IMG/VR virus record: IMGVR_UViG_3300045988_128735
DNA length: 45,722 bases
DNA from: a virus
Direction: 5' to 3' (one strand)
Shown here: piece after piece, positions 8,527 through 15,400 of the stretch
Position numbering within the stretch: the first letter of the stretch is position 1
Layout: each line of letters starts with the position of its first letter
Position numbers and translations under genes: made by a program
The notes under the pieces: model-generated
Told to the model about the DNA's origin: nothing
Database searches by the model: none
The model's input: only the letters and a program-made list of their open reading frames with translations

Positions 8527-8802
8527 TCAATAAACCAGATAAGGCGAGAAGTCAAACGTCTCTGGATTGTAGTTAATCTCACCGAGATAGCACATGGCTA
8601 TGCGATGACATGTGCGCTTGATATCGTCAAGCGTCGGGCGGTGGAAGTATTCCACGCGGTGGTATTTCACCTCTATTTCGAATGTGTCTTCGATGATGTG
8701 CTCCATCCGGATAAATAACAGCCAGTCCCCGCTTGGAAGTTGCTGTATCGGAACCCACTTCCAGCTCGAGTTCTGGCATGAAGAATTGTTTGTGATTGCC
8801 AT
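8527..8802 (-). CDS. Hypothetical protein (91 aa) overlapping the 3' tail of the RT ORF
   Basis: The composition looks protein-like, whereas the overlapping last ~60 aa of the RT frame are R/P/G-rich and look non-functional. Confidence 0.45.
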   Translation of the reverse strand: MAITNNSSCQNSSWKWVPIQQLPSGDWLLFIRMEHIIEDTFEIEVKYHRVEYFHRPTLDDIKRTCHRIAMCYLGEINYNPETFDFSPYLVY

Positions 8803-10201
8803 TTTTTATTTGCTTTTTAATTTTCTGAATAGGTCTGAATTGCTTTCGTAGCACAATCTTTTTGAAATGCCCCTCGACATAGATGAATTTATACCACCCT
8901 CTATCGAACAACGAAATCAGCTTCTTGCGCTTGTTGTATGTGTTATAATGAATCATCAAGCCGAGATAACTGTTAATAGTGGCCACGAACCTCTCTGCCC
9001 ACTGTTCGCCCTCGCCCGCTTGCAGTTTGCTGTTGTAAAAGTGTATGCGTCGATAAGCAGCACCGAGTGTACGTTTAGAAATGTATATACGGTTAGGCTT
9101 AATCATTGCACCGACATAGAGCACACCATGCTGATAAGGCTGTATGTAAATCTTTTTGGGATGAAGATTGATGTGTAACACATCTTTACAGAATACCTTT
9201 ATTTTAGACACCATAGCACGTGCATGCTCGAACCCCTTGGAGTCAAGAATGACGAAATCGTCCATGAACATCTCAAGCTCTTCAACTTTGAGTTCGTTAA
9301 GAAGATAATCAACAAGCACAGACATGTAGAAATTGGCTGAAAGCTGTGAAGGCAGCTTGCCTATAGCTATACCTATGCGAGGATCATTGCCCATTAACGA
9401 TTTGTCCGGAGGCAAATCGTCCCAAGCAGACCTTGGAGACCTACGAATGAAATGATGTTGCGGAGCGTCATAAATGGTCTTACGAAGCAGATAGAGAAGC
9501 AGGTCTTTGTCCGGTTTATGATAGTCAGCCATGATAAGGTCCTCATACATCCACCATAAAATATCTTTATCAATAGACATAAAGAACCCCTTGATATCAA
9601 GCCGTATAACAATAACATCTTTAGTATACCCCTCGGTAATGCTGTAGATTTTAGAAGCGAGAGACTTCACTGCCGTAAGGCAACCAAAACCCTTACGACA
9701 ATTTTTTGAAACGTTATATTGTCGTTTAAACCTTGCTTCAAGCAATGGATCTATGCGCTCTGCTATCCAGTGATGAACGATACGGTCACGGTATTGGGCG
9801 CCAAAAACCTCACGTTTGACGGGGTAAGGTACAATAAAAACGTCTGAAGGCGACGGCTCATAACTTAATGTTACAGCGTCGCGCCACAGACGGACAATAT
9901 TGTCGGAAGCATCTAAGGAGAATTCGATGCAATCAGCAGATGACCGTTTGTTCTTGTCGCAGGACTCTGCGGCATCGAAAAACGAAGTCGGAGTGTTGTA
10001 GACATAATCTTGATATGCAGCCACCGGGCGGACGAAGCCCGCGTTTGTCTTGTTGTTGTTGTTGCCGTTGCCGTTGTTGAGGTTCACGTTCCAAGCGTTA
10101 CCAGCATCCCACTCACTCGCTGTCGCTACTATGTAATTCTTTTCTCCCTCAAGCGAAGAAGAAGAGAGCGACCCATATAAAGAAAAATATTGCTCACTCA
10201 T
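8627..10201 (-). CDS. DGR reverse transcriptase (the ORF includes the TR at its 5' end)
   Basis: RT motifs are present: 'QYRDRIVHHW', 'RLDIKGFFMSIDKD', the DGR-type 'IGKLPSQLSANFYM' (IGxxxSQ) and 'FMDDFVILD' (YxDD-type catalytic box). It sits immediately downstream of avd and the TR. The functional RT domain seems to end near 8830. Confidence 0.93.
   Translation of the reverse strand: MSEQYFSLYGSLSSSSLEGEKNYIVATASEWDAGNAWNVNLNNGNGNNNNKTNAGFVRPVAAYQDYVYNTPTSFFDAAESCDKNKRSSADCIEFSLDASDNIVRLWRDAVTLSYEPSPSDVFIVPYPVKREVFGAQYRDRIVHHWIAERIDPLLEARFKRQYNVSKNCRKGFGCLTAVKSLASKIYSITEGYTKDVIVIRLDIKGFFMSIDKDILWWMYEDLIMADYHKPDKDLLLYLLRKTIYDAPQHHFIRRSPRSAWDDLPPDKSLMGNDPRIGIAIGKLPSQLSANFYMSVLVDYLLNELKVEELEMFMDDFVILDSKGFEHARAMVSKIKVFCKDVLHINLHPKKIYIQPYQHGVLYVGAMIKPNRIYISKRTLGAAYRRIHFYNSKLQAGEGEQWAERFVATINSYLGLMIHYNTYNKRKKLISLFDRGWYKFIYVEGHFKKIVLRKQFRPIQKIKKQIKNGNHKQFFMPELELEVGSDTATSKRGLAVIYPDGAHHRRHIRNRGEIPPRGILPPPDA
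10013..10115 (-). repeat. DGR template repeat (TR), 103 bp
   Basis: It aligns without gaps to 10846..10948. All 12 mismatches are T in this copy on the plus strand, which is A on the coding strand. It encodes 11 AAC codons ('NAWNVNLNNGNGNNNNKTN'). Confidence 0.95.
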
Positions 10202-10232
10202 AATGCCCTGATGTTGAGAATTATGACTCTGG

Positions 10233-10691
10233 CTACTGTGCAGTCTTCTTCCATGCAGTAGCTTGTCTACCGATACTCTCGGTAAGAACAGCCATCTGCG
10301 CTGCTGTGGAATTGGTTATCTGCTCCAGCTCTTTACATACTCCGATCAGCATCTTGACAGTGCCGAACTCTACGATAAACTCCTCGAGATATTGTCTACG
10401 GCTTGTACGACGATTGCGCCACTCATCAATAAACATACAAGCCAGACGAATCAAGCCATTAGCAGACTTGTTTGTCTCACCGTTGAACTGAGGCAAATAG
10501 TCTGGTGCCGGTATAGCTGTGTTGGCTTTCTGTATAAGCTCAAGACAGCGAAGTGCAGACTCGAAAAGGTGGCTCCCGAGATCATATCTGTATTCTCGGG
10601 AAAACTGCTTGCGAGCGCGGACTATCATCAGCAGCAACTCGTAAGTCTGTTTGTAAATTGGGAGTGTTTGTGCAAGTCGTTGATTAGCCAT
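10233..10691 (-). CDS. avd: Accessory variability determinant (Avd-like four-helix-bundle protein)
   Basis: 152-aa helical protein between the VR gene and the TR/RT, which is the canonical Avd position. The N-terminal pattern 'LPIYKQTYELLLMIVRARKQFSREYRYDLGSHL...LIQKAN' resembles Avd / 23S-IVS-type four-helix proteins. Confidence 0.8.
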   Translation of the reverse strand: MANQRLAQTLPIYKQTYELLLMIVRARKQFSREYRYDLGSHLFESALRCLELIQKANTAIPAPDYLPQFNGETNKSANGLIRLACMFIDEWRNRRTSRRQYLEEFIVEFGTVKMLIGVCKELEQITNSTAAQMAVLTESIGRQATAWKKTAQ

Positions 10692-10713
10692 AACATAATT
10701 AACTAAAAATTAA

Positions 10714-10721
10714 CAAATTTA
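10714..10721 (-). promoter_or_regulatory. Candidate -7 box (TAAATTTG) for the avd-TR-RT transcript
   Basis: Plus-strand 'caaattta', 23 nt upstream of the avd ATG (10691) and just downstream of the terminator of the VR gene. Confidence 0.5.
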
Positions 10722-10757
10722 TTGTACCCCTGTTTATTAATTTTTATTAATAAAAAA

Positions 10758-10772
10758 AGCCGCTTCGCGGCT
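10758..10772 (-). terminator. Hairpin plus T-run downstream of the VR gene
   Basis: The minus strand reads 'AGCCGC GAA GCGGCT' followed by TTTTTTT (plus-strand A-run at 10752-10758). It lies about 74 nt beyond the end of the VR. Confidence 0.75.
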
Positions 10773-10842
10773 GATTAGACATGCAGCCACAAAGCAGATT
10801 GATATAACTATCTGACAGTTAAAGAGTTAAAGGGTTAAAGAG

Positions 10843-11640
10843 CTAATATGCAGCCACCGGGCGGACGAAGCCCGCGCCTGTCTTGCCGTTGGTGCCGCCG
10901 TGGCCGTTGTAGAGGTTCACGCCCCAAGCGGTACCAGCATCCCACTCAGTACTACTCCAATACCAATCAAGTGTTAAAGAATATGAAGAACCGAGATTAT
11001 TTGTTAAAAACTTTCTTATCTCTTCACGGTATTTATATAGCAAGCGCAACTGGCCGTAGGCTGGAAGCGACCATTTGGTCGGGTCGTCGATAGCCGTGCT
11101 GTCAGCAGCCTTAGTGAAAGCCTTATAAGACCGCGCAACGGTAGCGGCAGGAAAGCTGGCCCCTTGCTCCTTGGCACATGCAAGAATAAGGTCGGTATTA
11201 GCCTCGCCGTCAACATCTTCGAACACCCCCTCGTTTTTGTTACTAAAATCTTTAAGACCGGGCACATTGATGTTCGTAGGACCCCACACAAAACGAATGG
11301 TAGAGTCTGATGTGGCGTTTTGAAGCGATAACACGAAAGCCATGCGCTCAGCACGTATGGCCACGCCGAACGGAACAAACTTTGACCTCTCGTTCACGGT
11401 CATCGTCTGCCATTGGTTTTCAGAGAAATAAGACCTTTGCGGCGACGGGTCTCTGAGCGAGGTCTTGAGATATGTAGCCACTTGCAGGTCGCGCAGACCA
11501 CCGGCCCACCTCATATGATTAACGATGTCAGACCACGTAGCATTGTCAGCGATGTCTGTAAAGCCGACATCGCGTAGAGCTTTAATCTGGTCTTGTTTGT
11601 TAAGACCGAGAATAATCGAACTGTTATTTGCATTATCCAT
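10843..11640 (-). CDS. DGR target protein (265 aa), C-type-lectin-like / DUF1566-like C-terminus; probable receptor-binding tail protein
   Basis: It carries the VR at its C-terminus. The 'W..S.EWDAG.AW.V......G......GFVRPV' ending is typical of DGR-diversified CLec / DUF1566-like folds. It lies two genes downstream of the giant fibre gene. Confidence 0.9.
   Translation of the reverse strand: MDNANNSSIILGLNKQDQIKALRDVGFTDIADNATWSDIVNHMRWAGGLRDLQVATYLKTSLRDPSPQRSYFSENQWQTMTVNERSKFVPFGVAIRAERMAFVLSLQNATSDSTIRFVWGPTNINVPGLKDFSNKNEGVFEDVDGEANTDLILACAKEQGASFPAATVARSYKAFTKAADSTAIDDPTKWSLPAYGQLRLLYKYREEIRKFLTNNLGSSYSLTLDWYWSSTEWDAGTAWGVNLYNGHGGTNGKTGAGFVRPVAAY
10846..10948 (-). repeat. DGR variable repeat (VR), 103 bp, at the 3' end of the target gene
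   Basis: The cognate of the TR. It ends at the last sense codon before the TAG stop (10843-10845). The encoded segment 'EWDAGTAWGVNLYNGHGGTNGKTGAGFVRPVAAY' differs from the TR-encoded 'EWDAGNAWNVNLNNGNGNNNNKTNAGFVRPVAAY' only at Asn positions. Confidence 0.95.
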
Positions 11641-11642
11641 AA

Positions 11643-12437
11643 TTACTCTTCAGAAATAGGTATCACCATATACTTGTCTGTCTTGTTTGTACCGTAGACA
11701 TTACCGCTAAGCACCGATACACGGTAAGCCACACTGCCGTTGGTTTGCACGCAGGTCCATATTGTGCCACCTGTCTTGTCAAGCGTAAAAGCCTGACCCC
11801 AAACCTGAGCAATGACCGTGTCAATAGCCTTGCGGTTGTGATAGATGACAAACGCCTGCGCAACGTCAGGCAGCATCCATGATGTCTGGTCATCTATAGC
11901 GACACCATTCACCATGACCCCGTCATCTTCGAGATACGCATGATAGTCATTTGCAGCTTCAGCTGCAGGGGCGCCGATGACGCCATCGGCGTTCTTGTCG
12001 GCATAATAGTCAAGTATAGCTCGGTTGAATCGAGCAACATCCTGATGCGACCAGGCACCGGCACGACCGTCAAAAGACGCAAGGTCACTGACAGTAGTCC
12101 GTGACCCCCATGTCTTATCTGCGTAATACTGCAGAGACATGACGAACGAAAGTCCGTCTGCCCTGATGCGAACGCCACGCCGTGCGAACTCCTCAGACCG
12201 CCCGGCATTGTCAATGGTCTGCCACTCCTCGACAGTGAAGTAGAATTTCTTGCCGTCACGTTTGCGGTCAGCAGCCACACGAATGTCGAGCAGCCCTGCA
12301 GCCCAACGAATGCGCTCTGCAAAGAGCGAGGCGCGTGAAGACTCGGTAATATCGGCAAAACCCAAGTCTTGAAGAGCCTTAACCTGCTCGCGTTTAGCGA
12401 GCAGGAGGCCAGTAATGTTTTGTTGATTGCTTGCCAT
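11643..12437 (-). CDS. Non-diversified paralog of the DGR target (264 aa)
   Basis: Shared blocks with 10843..11640: 'KALxDxGFxDI', 'RWAxGL', 'EWQT', 'FVxSLQ' and 'AIDDxTxWxLP', plus a similar C-terminal 'GxNKT...xVxPx'. I chose the ATG at 12437 (MASNQQ...); the ORF-track start at 12515 would overlap the fibre gene. Confidence 0.8.
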   Translation of the reverse strand: MASNQQNITGLLLAKREQVKALQDLGFADITESSRASLFAERIRWAAGLLDIRVAADRKRDGKKFYFTVEEWQTIDNAGRSEEFARRGVRIRADGLSFVMSLQYYADKTWGSRTTVSDLASFDGRAGAWSHQDVARFNRAILDYYADKNADGVIGAPAAEAANDYHAYLEDDGVMVNGVAIDDQTSWMLPDVAQAFVIYHNRKAIDTVIAQVWGQAFTLDKTGGTIWTCVQTNGSVAYRVSVLSGNVYGTNKTDKYMVIPISEE

Positions 12438-12441
12438 TTTG

Positions 12442-15400
12442 TTATTTGTCAATAATTTTAAGAATATCATCATCGGCTTCAGCCAGACGGTTGTAGTAGT
12501 CATCATAAGTCTCACCGTTGTACTGCTTCAGGTAGTCGTTGATATTGTCAAGACTGACATCTTCAACTTCTGCCTCGCCGGAGTATTGTTCGCCGAGGAA
12601 ATCAATAACAGCATTAATATAAGCCATGATAGACATAACTATCGTAAGACCCTCGATGTGCTGAGTGAGGTCGTCTATGTACGACTGCTCTCGCACACGA
12701 GTAAGCTGATAGTCACTCTCGACAACCGGTTTGTCTTGCAACTTGCCGTCTTCGGTAATGCCGCGCACGCCAAGAGTCAGTAACAAGGCAAGCAGCGAAC
12801 CGTCACCAGAAAGCGTCTGAATCACTCGGATGGCAGTAAGCTGACGGTTGCCCGTCTGAGCGTCAACAACACGCTGTAGCATTGTCAACGGCTCTATCTC
12901 ATTGCAGTGCTCGATGCGCAGTGTCTGCACATTGGCGAGAGACGCAATCTGAAGGTTGCCGCCCGTCAGCGTGTAGCTTAGGTTCGGCAAGTTGATAAAC
13001 TTGACAGTCTTGAGCGTCGCCGGAAGCGTAAGCTCAGTGATTGGCGACGTCTCTGCAACCTCGACACTCTGCACACGACTGCCGTCAGCCTTGATGCTCG
13101 TAAGGCGAGGACACATGCTCGCGTCAACGGATGCGACGAGCGTGTTGCGCACGTCAAGCGACTGAAGGAAAGGCATGTTGCCGAGGTTGAGCGTGTCGAG
13201 AGTGCCATCGACAGTGTATGGGACGTAGTCAGCACCGCCGACAACAAGATGCTGCAGCAATTTACAGTACTGTATATCCCAGCCCTGCGACTTCGGCGTA
13301 GCAGCACTGATGTCGAGTGATGCGAGCGAAGCAGCACCGAAGACGTATAACATGGTGCCCGACTCGGAATAACTGCGCGGACTGTCATTGAAGAACGTAT
13401 AGCTCTTGCCCCTCTTGAGATAAGTAGAGTCTGCGGCGGTATCTGCGCGATCCTCGCCGATGCCGAAGAAACCGTCTTTAGCCGCCGTGATGCTCACAGT
13501 GATAGCTTTGCCCGACGCACGCATCTTCATCGGCTTGGTGTACAGGTCGCCCACCTGGTAGTAACCGTCGCGATAGGCGAAGCGAGTCTTGATATATTCT
13601 GGCATATCGTCGAGACGTAAGCCATGCAAGGCGAAGAAGTAGTTGGCGCTCGCCTTTGAGTGTTGAATATACTTGCGCTCGCCGTCAAACGACGAAATCA
13701 CCTTAGCCCACTTCAGGATGCGTTTTGTCATCCATATCTGATAAAGACCGTCATAAGAGAATACCTTCAGTCCCTGCTTGTCCACAGCCTTACGCATCTC
13801 ATCAGCCACATCATGCAGCGTCACGAAACGCGATTTGTCGGTGTAGCCACTCTTTTCGTCGCCCTCCTTGTAGTCGTCAAGCCAAATAACGGGGTTCTCA
13901 TTGAGACGTTGGAAGAACACGCTGTCCCAGCCCTGGTACAGTCTGCCCTCTTCACCCTCGCCGACAAGCAGCGGGTTGAGCAATGCCGAGATGGTCAGAC
14001 CGCAATCGTTGTCGGCACCCATTGTACAGTCACCGTCATACCAGTTGTTGAAGTCAGAACGTATCACGCCATCCTCACATAGCATGAAGGTCTGCATCAT
14101 GTTCTTCGAGCGCTGGTCTACAGCAGCAACATAATCTGTAAGTATATAATAGTAGAGAGCAGCCTTGACACGCCAGTACCGGTGCATCTCATGGGCAAAC
14201 TTCTTGGCGCGGTTAGCACGTGTGCCTGGCACCGTCTTGCCGTCAAGCGTTATGTTGCCGTCAGCCTCAGTAAGGTGCGGGTTGCACTGCTGCATCCACA
14301 TCAAATTCTCATAGAAGTAGTACGGCACCTTCTTGCCACTCTCGTACAAAGCGTTCAGATCGTCATCGTCAGGATAGCGACTTTCGAAATGCGACAGCCA
14401 AATCGGCTTGCCCGTAGCAGGGTCAAGACGCAGCATGTCGTCAACCGAGTTCACGCCCTGATACCAGTTAAGACCGTTGTACTTAAGATGCTCATAGCAC
14501 TGCGTCGGATTGAGCACCCTGCCCGTAACCTGCCAACGCTTTGTCGTCTTGTCGTAGGTCATAGAGCCGGTAGTCTCTCGCCACTTGCCACCCTCATATT
14601 TGGCATACTTGCCGTCAGCCGTCTTATACACCTCGCTCCAGTCATAGTCTGCCACGTCAGCCGATAGCAGCTCGGCAAGTGTCTGCTCGAGCACCAAAGC
14701 GTCAGCCACCTCGCTTGTCTCGACAAAGTGGCCGGTACCGTCGTTCTCAATGAAGGCAGTCTTCGGACCGCAGAACTCCGACAGCATGTATATCTCGCCC
14801 GCCTGCAGCTTAGACGTGTCGGCAAGCGTCTGCGCCTTAAACTCGCCGAAGTCCTGTCCGCGAGCAGCAACAAGTTCAGTAAAGTCACCATAATTCATGC
14901 AGCTCTTGTTGTAGCCGTCTACGCCCTCGAAGCCGAACACCTTGGCGTCGCCCTTGTCCTCGTTCAGGTTGGCCTTGACATGGAAGTAGGCGTAAGCCGG
15001 ATTGGTAGCGTCTGGCGAATACTTGTCGGTGCGGAAGAAGGCACACGGCACACTCGCTATCGACGGATTAATCTCAGCCTTGCCAGTGTAGGCATTCTGT
15101 GACGGCTGCATATACTCGGCACCGAGAGCACGGATCAGTCGGTTGTTCAGTTCGCATGACGCGCCATTGTTCGCGCCGGTGCAATCGGAATAATCAACCT
15201 TCACGGTGAGGATGTCTGTAGCGACACCATTCTCAACCACTTTGATTTTGCCCTTCTTGGCATTGGCAAGAGCCTCGTCGTACTTGGCGAGGTCAGCGCC
15301 GCTAAACTCCTCACGGCTGTGTAGCAGAGTGATTTTAGCAGTCTTCGTCTTACCCTTCTTGTTCTTGTCAGGGCGTAACGATGACGTCGTGCCCTGATTG

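Follow-up and report, generated by a model that had tools for sequence, protein, structure and literature searches.

The reverse transcriptase (RT) of a diversity-generating retroelement (DGR), found in a viral DNA stretch of 45,722 nucleotides (IMG/VR record IMGVR_UViG_3300045988_128735, referred to here as the window), is probably translated from an ATG at 10201-10199, through a structured leader and the complete template repeat (TR). The 64-residue disordered extension that the protein gains in this way would be a tolerated by-product. This reading, which we hold with good confidence, is built on the comparison of the locus with its relatives. The same comparison supports the proposal of the first-pass annotation that one RNA segment is both template and coding sequence. 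That annotation had left two options for the RT, of which a fusion protein with an N-terminal extension is now favored by the comparative evidence and an unconventional start is disfavored.

The genes and repeats on which the argument depends are the following.

Positions 10199-10201, minus strand: ATG proposed as the RT start, located 31 nt beyond the avd stop and invariant in the clade.
Positions 8627-10201, minus strand: RT open reading frame (ORF) of 524 codons with an ATG start, from the ORF listing, Pfam, and AlphaFold.
Positions 10013-10115, minus strand: TR, with 30 adenines and 11 AAC codons, corresponding to codons 30-63 of the RT frame.
Positions 10233-10691, minus strand: avd (accessory variability determinant), 152 amino acids, assigned by Pfam bAvd PF22296.
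Positions 10846-10948, minus strand: variable repeat (VR), the last 34 target-gene codons up to the stop codon, delimited by the 103-nt TR alignment.
Positions 10843-11640, minus strand: DGR target gene, an ORF of 265 amino acids with a putative C-terminal Lcl_C / DUF1566-type C-type-lectin-like domain (Pfam PF07603).

The locus is a genuine, standard DGR. On the minus strand, the order is target gene with the VR, avd, TR, and RT, with a terminator-like hairpin between the target gene and avd. The TR and the VR align over 103 nt with 12 mismatches, all 12 of them at TR adenines, and near-identical TRs in related loci are paired with differing VRs that show 3-16 adenine-only mismatches each. 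The avd product matches Pfam bAvd PF22296 above its cutoff of 40 (E=2.8e-10, 41.1 bits), while the match of the target gene to PF07603 is weak (E=2.5e-7, 31.4 bits, under the gathering score of 34.9). The Pfam RVT_1 match of the RT ORF is also weak (residues 138-364), and the Bordetella DGR RT (8ub7_A) is its sole PDB match by sequence (E=9.4e-16). The RT motif IGxxxSQ is present as IGKLPSQ, with G281 and Q286 invariant, and in the FMDDF motif D314 and D315 of the DD pair are invariant. The closest relatives are IMG/VR contigs at 98-99% identity and a metagenome-assembled genome (MAG) of Prevotella at ~78%; a megablast of the locus, and of a more distant clade at 46% identity, against a phage collection gave nothing usable.

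As the first-pass annotation had described, no stop interrupts the RT frame between the ATG at 10201-10199 and the RT itself, a stretch that takes in an 86-nt leader (28 codons after the ATG) and the TR at 10115-10013. It had also stated that the TR and the VR share one reading frame, and the two translations bear this out: the TR in the RT frame reads EWDAGNAWNVNLNNGNGNNNNKTNAGFVRPVAAY, the VR in the frame of the target gene reads EWDAGTAWGVNLYNGHGGTNGKTGAGFVRPVAAY, and the frames are identical. The peptide that the TR encodes within the RT ORF includes NAWNVNLNNGNGNNNNK. Between 10201 and 10010, each of the other two frames holds 4 stops, so the TR can be traversed only in the frame of the VR. 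For the window alone, the probability of this arrangement is not small, since a frame match is expected in 1 of 3 cases and a run of 29 stop-free leader codons in about 1 of 4; the TR necessarily has no stops in the VR frame, and the open frame in the window alone is therefore not beyond chance. Its significance comes instead from conservation among relatives, as judged from their sequences.

Relatives were collected in two ways. A protein search returned 493, and all 34 of those that were read, down to ~35% identity, carry a TR-like Asn-rich peptide (AWNVNxNNGNxNNNNK..VRPVxA) in frame at the N-terminus. In addition, loci were fetched through the RT core only, which avoids a bias towards that N-terminus. 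This gave 159 loci (79 IMG/VR contigs and 80 genomes, one per species), in each of which the TR, the stops, and the ATGs were placed against a common anchor, the codon of window residue 65. Counts of embedded loci are given over 158 related loci, and clustering at 70% identity yields 30 clusters.

Three states can be told apart in this collection. In the embedded state, found in 79 of the 158 loci and in 14 of the 30 clusters, 1-25 nt separate the end of the TR from the anchor, the open RT frame runs through the TR, and upstream of the TR there is an ATG. It includes the clade of the window, made up of viral contigs and of MAGs from Prevotella and Bacteroidaceae at 74-99% identity, and the 46% clade, which is very abundant in Bacteroides genomes. 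In the conventional state, found at 37-40% identity in Chitinophagales, Flavobacteriales, Alphaproteobacteria MAGs, and one Parabacteroides, the TR ends at least 55 nt upstream and is followed by a GC-rich hairpin and a U run. There the RT has its own ATG (MQLxLF...) 27-51 nt before the anchor, and the frame upstream of it is closed. The third state is intermediate: the sole ATG is within the TR ('nvnMnngn') in L095, L097, L101, and L105, an ATG stands directly after the TR in L111, L132, L140, and L159, and L145-L152 combine an ATG at +9 with stops inside the TR or behind it.

No stop or frameshift between the upstream ATG and the RT was found in any locus examined from the window's clade or from the clades at 43-47% identity. 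Among the clusters in which the TR abuts the RT, 17 of 19 are stop-free through the TR, and the longest open frame upstream of the TR is the RT frame in 16 of the 18 in-frame clusters. The first-pass annotation had named homologs with stops or frameshifts between the TR and the RT core as a refutation of its proposal. Such homologs are absent from the clades just mentioned and occur, in a formal sense, only at ~38% identity (L140, L145-148, L152), where stops in or after the TR go together with an own ATG right after it. These loci represent an alternative state and no refutation for the clade of the window.

The position of avd relative to the RT start differs as well. Whatever the length of the leader, about 20 embedded lineages have their avd stop at -34 to +19 nt from the leader ATG; where relatives start within or after the TR, 100-370 nt separate the avd stop from the RT start.

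Within the first 150 codons of the window's RT frame, the in-frame candidates for initiation are ATG1 (10201), ATA24, GTG39 (10087), GTG60 (10024), ATC92, ATT102, and CTG105. The first-pass annotation had found no in-frame ATG, GTG, or TTG directly after the TR, and indeed none occurs from the end of the TR to codon 92; in the RT frame, that interval holds no near-cognate start codon either. It had also mentioned a GTG inside the TR, which is present, although there are two such in-frame codons and not one. Neither is conserved. At codon 39, L001 (99% identical) has GTA and L005, L006, and L081 have GTC; at codon 60, L008 has GCG and L081 has GTA; all of these are close relatives with diversified VRs. 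ATG1, in turn, is invariant in the clade of the window, and its pairing partner changes only in ways compatible with wobble. The three indels found downstream of ATG1 measure 3, 3, and 6 nt, all multiples of 3, and the one upstream of it, in the loop of the stem-loop P1 described below, measures 5 nt. Further into the protein, A77, C81, and K85 are invariant among 19 lineages and yet all of their synonymous codons are used, which indicates protein-level selection at these residues and hence that translation begins before residue 77. With neither a canonical nor a near-cognate start codon from codon 60 to 92, a start upstream of codon 61 is required, and ATG1 is the only conserved candidate. 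Most likely, then, ATG1 is the start that the RT uses.

The leader between avd and the TR is organized as an RNA domain with two helices, here named P1 and P2.

Positions 10198-10226, minus strand: stem-loop P1 of 10 bp, with its 5' arm at 10226-10216 and its 3' arm at 10208-10198; the RT start codon lies in the 3' arm.
Positions 10233-10227 (GCCAGAG) and 10197-10190 (GUGAGCAA), minus strand: conserved flanks of P1, identified by conservation.
Positions 10116-10198, minus strand: leader, RT codons 2-29, holding a linker rich in A and U, helix P2, and an inner hairpin that is variable.
Positions 10172-10167 (GUCGCU) pairing with 10127-10122 (AGCGAC), minus strand: helix P2, which encloses the variable hairpin and is indicated by covariation.

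P1 and P2 are real helices, common to the embedded relatives and to those with an untranslated TR. In 14 distinct sequences, 93.6% of the cells of P1 are paired, against 39-52% when the partner is slid by 1-3 columns, and 5 of its pairs show compensatory changes; none of 500 shuffles attains the observed value. When the arms are extracted by the conserved flanks alone (GCCRGAR ... GNGAGCAR), 31 distinct versions of P1 are obtained, 30 of which pair at 9-10 of 10 positions; the exception, L113 (6 of 10 paired, with a 56-nt loop), looks spurious. Most versions carry UACG, CACG, CAAG, or UAAG tetraloops, and they include relatives in the conventional state with entirely different stem sequences. 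RNAalifold on 17 lineages recovers P1, adds P2, and finds compensatory changes in 18 of 20 predicted pairs. The domain is also present in L116, L118, L119, L121, L125, L126, L128, L130, L138, L147, L149, and L155, and it may be the recognition element for Avd or the RT in this DGR family. Searches for further structure were negative: Rfam has no family matching 9600-11000, the 401-nt region 10250-9850 as a whole is no more stable than shuffled sequences (z=0.03), and RNAduplex between the leader and the 160 nt after the TR in 11 lineages, modeled on the Bordetella upstream/Spacer duplex, gave only long and inconsistent structures.

Codon statistics point the same way. In the RT core of the window's clade, synonymous divergence (pS) is 0.72-0.87 and nonsynonymous divergence (pN) 0.09-0.19. 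In leader codons 1-14, pS is only 0.11-0.23, a sign of constraint at the nucleotide level. The apparent leader peptide M[SG]EQ...[IYF]G is explained by the RNA, namely by the AUG followed by the GNGAGCAR flank and by the GGG that opens P2, and the alternation of Ser and Gly at RT codon 2 (AGY or GGN) follows from covariation with the 5' arm of P1, where the partner is U or C. The leader thus appears to be an RNA domain first and a coding sequence second.

Two ideas on the origin and role of the leader were considered and rejected. P1 is not a dedicated translational operator in its primary role, as a covarying P1 is kept in lineages without an AUG in it. Similarly, the leader N-terminus M[SG]EQLELFIG is not homologous to the conventional MQLELF, as it would be if the TR had been inserted into an ancestral RT ORF, because its 'SEQ' is the GNGAGCAR flank and its 'G' the GGG of P2, both of which are present untranslated in relatives.

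The avd gene reaches into this domain. In the window, its stop codon TAG (10235-10233) lies 8 nt upstream of the P1 5' arm; in other clades, the stop is within the 5' or the 3' arm. Three codons beyond this TAG stands an in-frame TAA (10223-10221) that serves as the avd stop in related clades, where the 5' arm of P1 consists of the last avd codons and the avd stop. An upstream stop within or next to a conserved helix that pairs with a downstream start is the arrangement by which hairpin-mediated coupling is recognized, and here this helix is backed by covariation. In the related clades with the TAA stop inside the P1 5' arm, the avd C-terminus reads ...KPES*, and the window's clade, whose avd ends at the TAG, still holds the ancestral codons CCA GAG TCA TAA behind it.

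Variation at the AUG of P1 amounts to a natural experiment. Eight lineages have ATG as this triplet, and in every one of them the leader frame continues open to the TR and the RT. L094-L097 have AGG or GGG instead, and L101, L111, and L131 have ACG; in these AUG-less versions the 5' arm compensates (CAU to CCU or CGU), so that the helix is kept and the start codon lost. Leader stops occur in 4 of these 7 lineages, and in 6 of the 7 an ATG is found within the TR or immediately behind it; L094, the remaining one, has gained a leader ATG downstream of P1 and has another inside the TR. The association of an open leader with the P1 ATG has a Fisher p of 0.026. Relatives in the conventional state carry GTG, AAG, GTA, AAA, GGT, or CGG at this position. 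Such a pattern is what would be expected if the AUG of P1 were the working RT start wherever it is present.

The protein encoded from ATG1 is predicted to be disordered up to the RT fold. In an AlphaFold model based on a 112-sequence alignment (mean predicted local distance difference test score, pLDDT, of 82), pLDDT is <50 at residues 1-67 and 482-524, the RT fold is modeled from about residue 68 (~10000) to about residue 481 (~8759), with confidence from about residue 70, and homology to the Bordetella RT (8ub7_A) starts at residue 73, which corresponds to its residue 17. The first-pass annotation had described the extension as lectin-tail-like. It is not a lectin-like module: of a fold with more than 100 residues it has only the final 34, and it is predicted to be disordered. 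The 64-residue extension is probably a by-product, and the relatives that start inside or after the TR suggest that it is dispensable for the RT family.

Several observations weigh against translation from ATG1. An AUG buried in a 10-bp stem should initiate weakly, and the hairpin of the window has a dG of -9.8 kcal/mol (z-score -1.67). P1 is also present in relatives without any AUG in it, and the conventional locus L155 has a P1 ATG that opens only a 7-codon out-of-frame ORF, which shows that an ATG can arise there by chance. In leader codons 15-29, pN about equals pS (~0.3), so that no selection on the peptide is seen in that part. The lineages compared are mutually related, and the counts given above are thus counts of non-independent events. 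Finally, RTs that start within or just after the TR (L095, L101, L105, L111, L140, L145) imply that the enzyme is functional without the extension and, by this comparison, that initiation downstream of ATG1 is biologically possible in the family.

These points lend themselves to another explanation, in which the RT initiates inside the TR (at GTG 10087 or GTG 10024) or at a non-canonical codon and the frame back to ATG 10201 is an untranslated, stop-free RNA leader. Related lineages that use an ATG within the TR (L095, L097, L101, L105) or directly after it (L111, L132, L140, L145) provide precedents, a stem sequesters ATG1, the leader peptide shows no selection, and the A-rich unstructured TR would suit Shine-Dalgarno-independent initiation, which is typical of Bacteroidota. 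The loss of both GTGs in close relatives with diversified VRs and the want of any near-cognate codon from codon 60 to 92 speak against it, and it leaves unexplained why the indels are multiples of three, why the AUG beside the avd stop is invariant, and why the P1 ATG and an open leader go together. We therefore consider it unlikely. Less probable still is that the Asn-rich extension encoded by the TR is a functional protein module that contacts, for example, Avd, RNA, or the target protein. It is attached exactly at the part of the Bordetella RT (bRT), its N-terminal extension subdomain, that touches Avd in the solved complex (preprint 10.1101/2023.10.23.563531), and the architecture persists down to ~36% RT identity; against this stand the low pLDDT of residues 1-67 (<50), the presence of only the terminal 34 residues of a lectin fold, the related RTs that lack part or all of the extension, the near equality of pN and pS in codons 15-29, and the fact that the template role already accounts for the conservation of the TR. 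Least credible of all is a chance ORF extension or annotation artefact of no biological meaning, in which the TR frame matches the RT frame by accident. The odds computed for the window alone (about 1/3 x 1/4) would allow it, but the arrangement recurs in 79 loci and at least 14 of the 30 clusters, the frame is never disrupted in the clade, and its openness correlates with the P1 ATG, all of which contradicts such a reading at the level of comparative sequence data.

With translation from ATG1 as the preferred reading, the element would be an active avd-TR-RT DGR in which a ribosome starting at 10201-10199 traverses the structured leader and then the whole TR, and reaches the RT proper at about residue 65-70. 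The codons of the extension would be dictated by the needs of the RNA, that is, by P1, P2, and the TR as template for the VR, and coding would add only the demand for an open frame; the TR would be read in the frame of the VR because that frame is the only one free of stops. From the geometry of the avd stop, P1, and the AUG, we infer that a ribosome terminating on avd may melt P1 and expose the AUG, coupling RT synthesis to Avd synthesis, and that a folded P1, possibly bound by Avd and the RT, may block initiation and leave the RNA as template.

A more elaborate version of this mechanism, which we regard as speculative and rather doubtful, is that the RT start codon was recruited into a pre-existing, family-wide P1 that is recognized by Avd and the RT, and that one RNA toggles between mutually exclusive states as mRNA and as template. 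Ribosomes finishing avd would open P1 and make the RNA a messenger; a folded or protein-bound P1 would occlude the AUG, and the ribosome-free TR would serve as template. Such a toggle, if true, would impose negative feedback on RT synthesis, and action in cis could be favored, with the TR long vacated once a ribosome completes the RT about 1.4 kb downstream.

The layout as such has been on record since 2012; the first-pass annotation had set it against the textbook DGRs, but it is no departure from the catalogued ones. The DiGReF survey already catalogued TR-overlapping RT ORFs as its 'group 3', defined by a TR in the 5' end of the RT's annotated ORF (Schillinger 2012, PMC3521204), and the window, with its TR at 10115-10013 inside the ORF 10201-8627, belongs there. 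That survey classified the layout only and left the frame, the start codon, and conservation unanalyzed. Likewise, the TR is described as intergenic only 'in most cases' (Roux 2021). Full-text literature searches on a translated or ORF-embedded TR found only the 2012 classification, and no paper was found that analyzes the frame, the start codon, the translation of the TR, or the upstream P1/P2 domain. In the present comparison, the layout turns out to be the rule for a large clade of Bacteroidales and phages.

A close known system is the DGR of Bordetella phage BPP-1 (avd - TR - 140-nt Spacer - brt). It resembles the window in gene order, in adenine-specific mismatches, and in having Avd, and in both a functional RNA element beside the TR includes the 3' end of avd. 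In BPP-1, the TR and the 140-nt Spacer are non-coding, and the Spacer, downstream of the TR, provides both an Avd-binding stem-loop and the site of priming. The window, in contrast, has no non-coding spacer: its TR lies inside an ORF, RT-homologous codons follow ~5-10 codons after the end of the TR, and the conserved stem-loops are upstream of it. The relatives with an untranslated TR (L106-L155, 37-40% RT identity) have the same RT family and the same P1-P2 domain between avd and the TR, but differ in the GC-rich hairpin and U run after the TR, in the own ATG of the RT, and in the closed frame upstream.

Another parallel comes from group II introns, where the intron protein LtrA binds intron domain IVa, which holds LtrA's own start codon. 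There, as in the switch proposed here, a high-affinity RNA site would overlap the initiation region of the protein's own gene, and the RNA would change between mRNA and template or ribozyme. The likeness is an analogy for the inferred switch only, and binding of Avd or the RT to P1 is hypothetical.

The sequence just 3' of the TR also varies between lineages. In L013, L014, L015, L087, L091, L094, L095, L101, and L111, the ~20 nt directly after the TR read (R)TCTATGACATWCC, encoding (V/I)YDIP. This stretch is near-invariant in nucleotides, synonymous positions included, across clades with ~45% RT identity (Tyr is always TAT and Asp always GAC), which suggests a role at the RNA level, possibly linked to priming. 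The clade of the window carries another sequence in its place. In L116, L119, L121, L128, L130, L147, and L155, a GC-rich inverted repeat with a U run stands 5-60 nt after the TR; it is absent from the embedded clade and could be an intrinsic terminator or an Avd-binding stem-loop as in other DGRs.

Other observations concern the surroundings of the element. Directly upstream of the target gene, an ORF of 290 amino acids (11643-12515, minus strand) shares its N-terminal region with it (QVKALQDLGFADI in the ORF, QIKALRDVGFTDI in the target gene). It has neither a VR-like C-terminus nor a Pfam match and looks like an undiversified paralogue of the target gene. At the other end, the last 58 RT codons (8627-8802, minus strand) overlap in another frame with the next ORF (8802..8527, 91 amino acids, no Pfam match). 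RT codons 471-524 have a lowered pS (0.22-0.38) and a pLDDT <50, the RTs of the 46% clade stop ~45 residues sooner, and the protein P0002 (556 amino acids) is a variant in which the RT ORF and the following ORF are fused. Four further loci (L010, L011, L017, and L018, with proteins P0020, P0022, P0026, and P0029) hold a 680-residue fusion ORF in which the VR or TR links the whole target gene directly to the RT; avd and the leader are absent from these loci, and P0020 represents 567 member sequences. These fusions are either assembly collapses across the VR/TR repeat or real deletions by recombination between VR and TR.

Almost all that has been worked out of the DGR mechanism comes from a single element with a non-coding TR and non-coding RNA on its flanks, and recent papers still call the TR a non-coding RNA. 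The clade that departs from this picture is large and abundant in gut metagenomes, occurring in Bacteroidales and their phages, with clusters of more than 1000 member sequences. It has no non-coding spacer, and its RT ORF overprints both the TR and the RNA domain that precedes it. Among the relatives, start sites occur before, within, and immediately behind the TR as well as behind a hairpin, a natural series that could serve directly as test constructs. Should ATG1 prove to be the start, annotation pipelines and engineered DGR systems would need the true boundaries of the RT, and the TR would be under an additional constraint, the exclusion of stops in the RT frame. Translation and templating would then compete for the same nucleotides, and the priming and Avd-binding elements that follow the TR in Bordetella would have to sit elsewhere, maybe in P1 and P2 or within the RT codons themselves.

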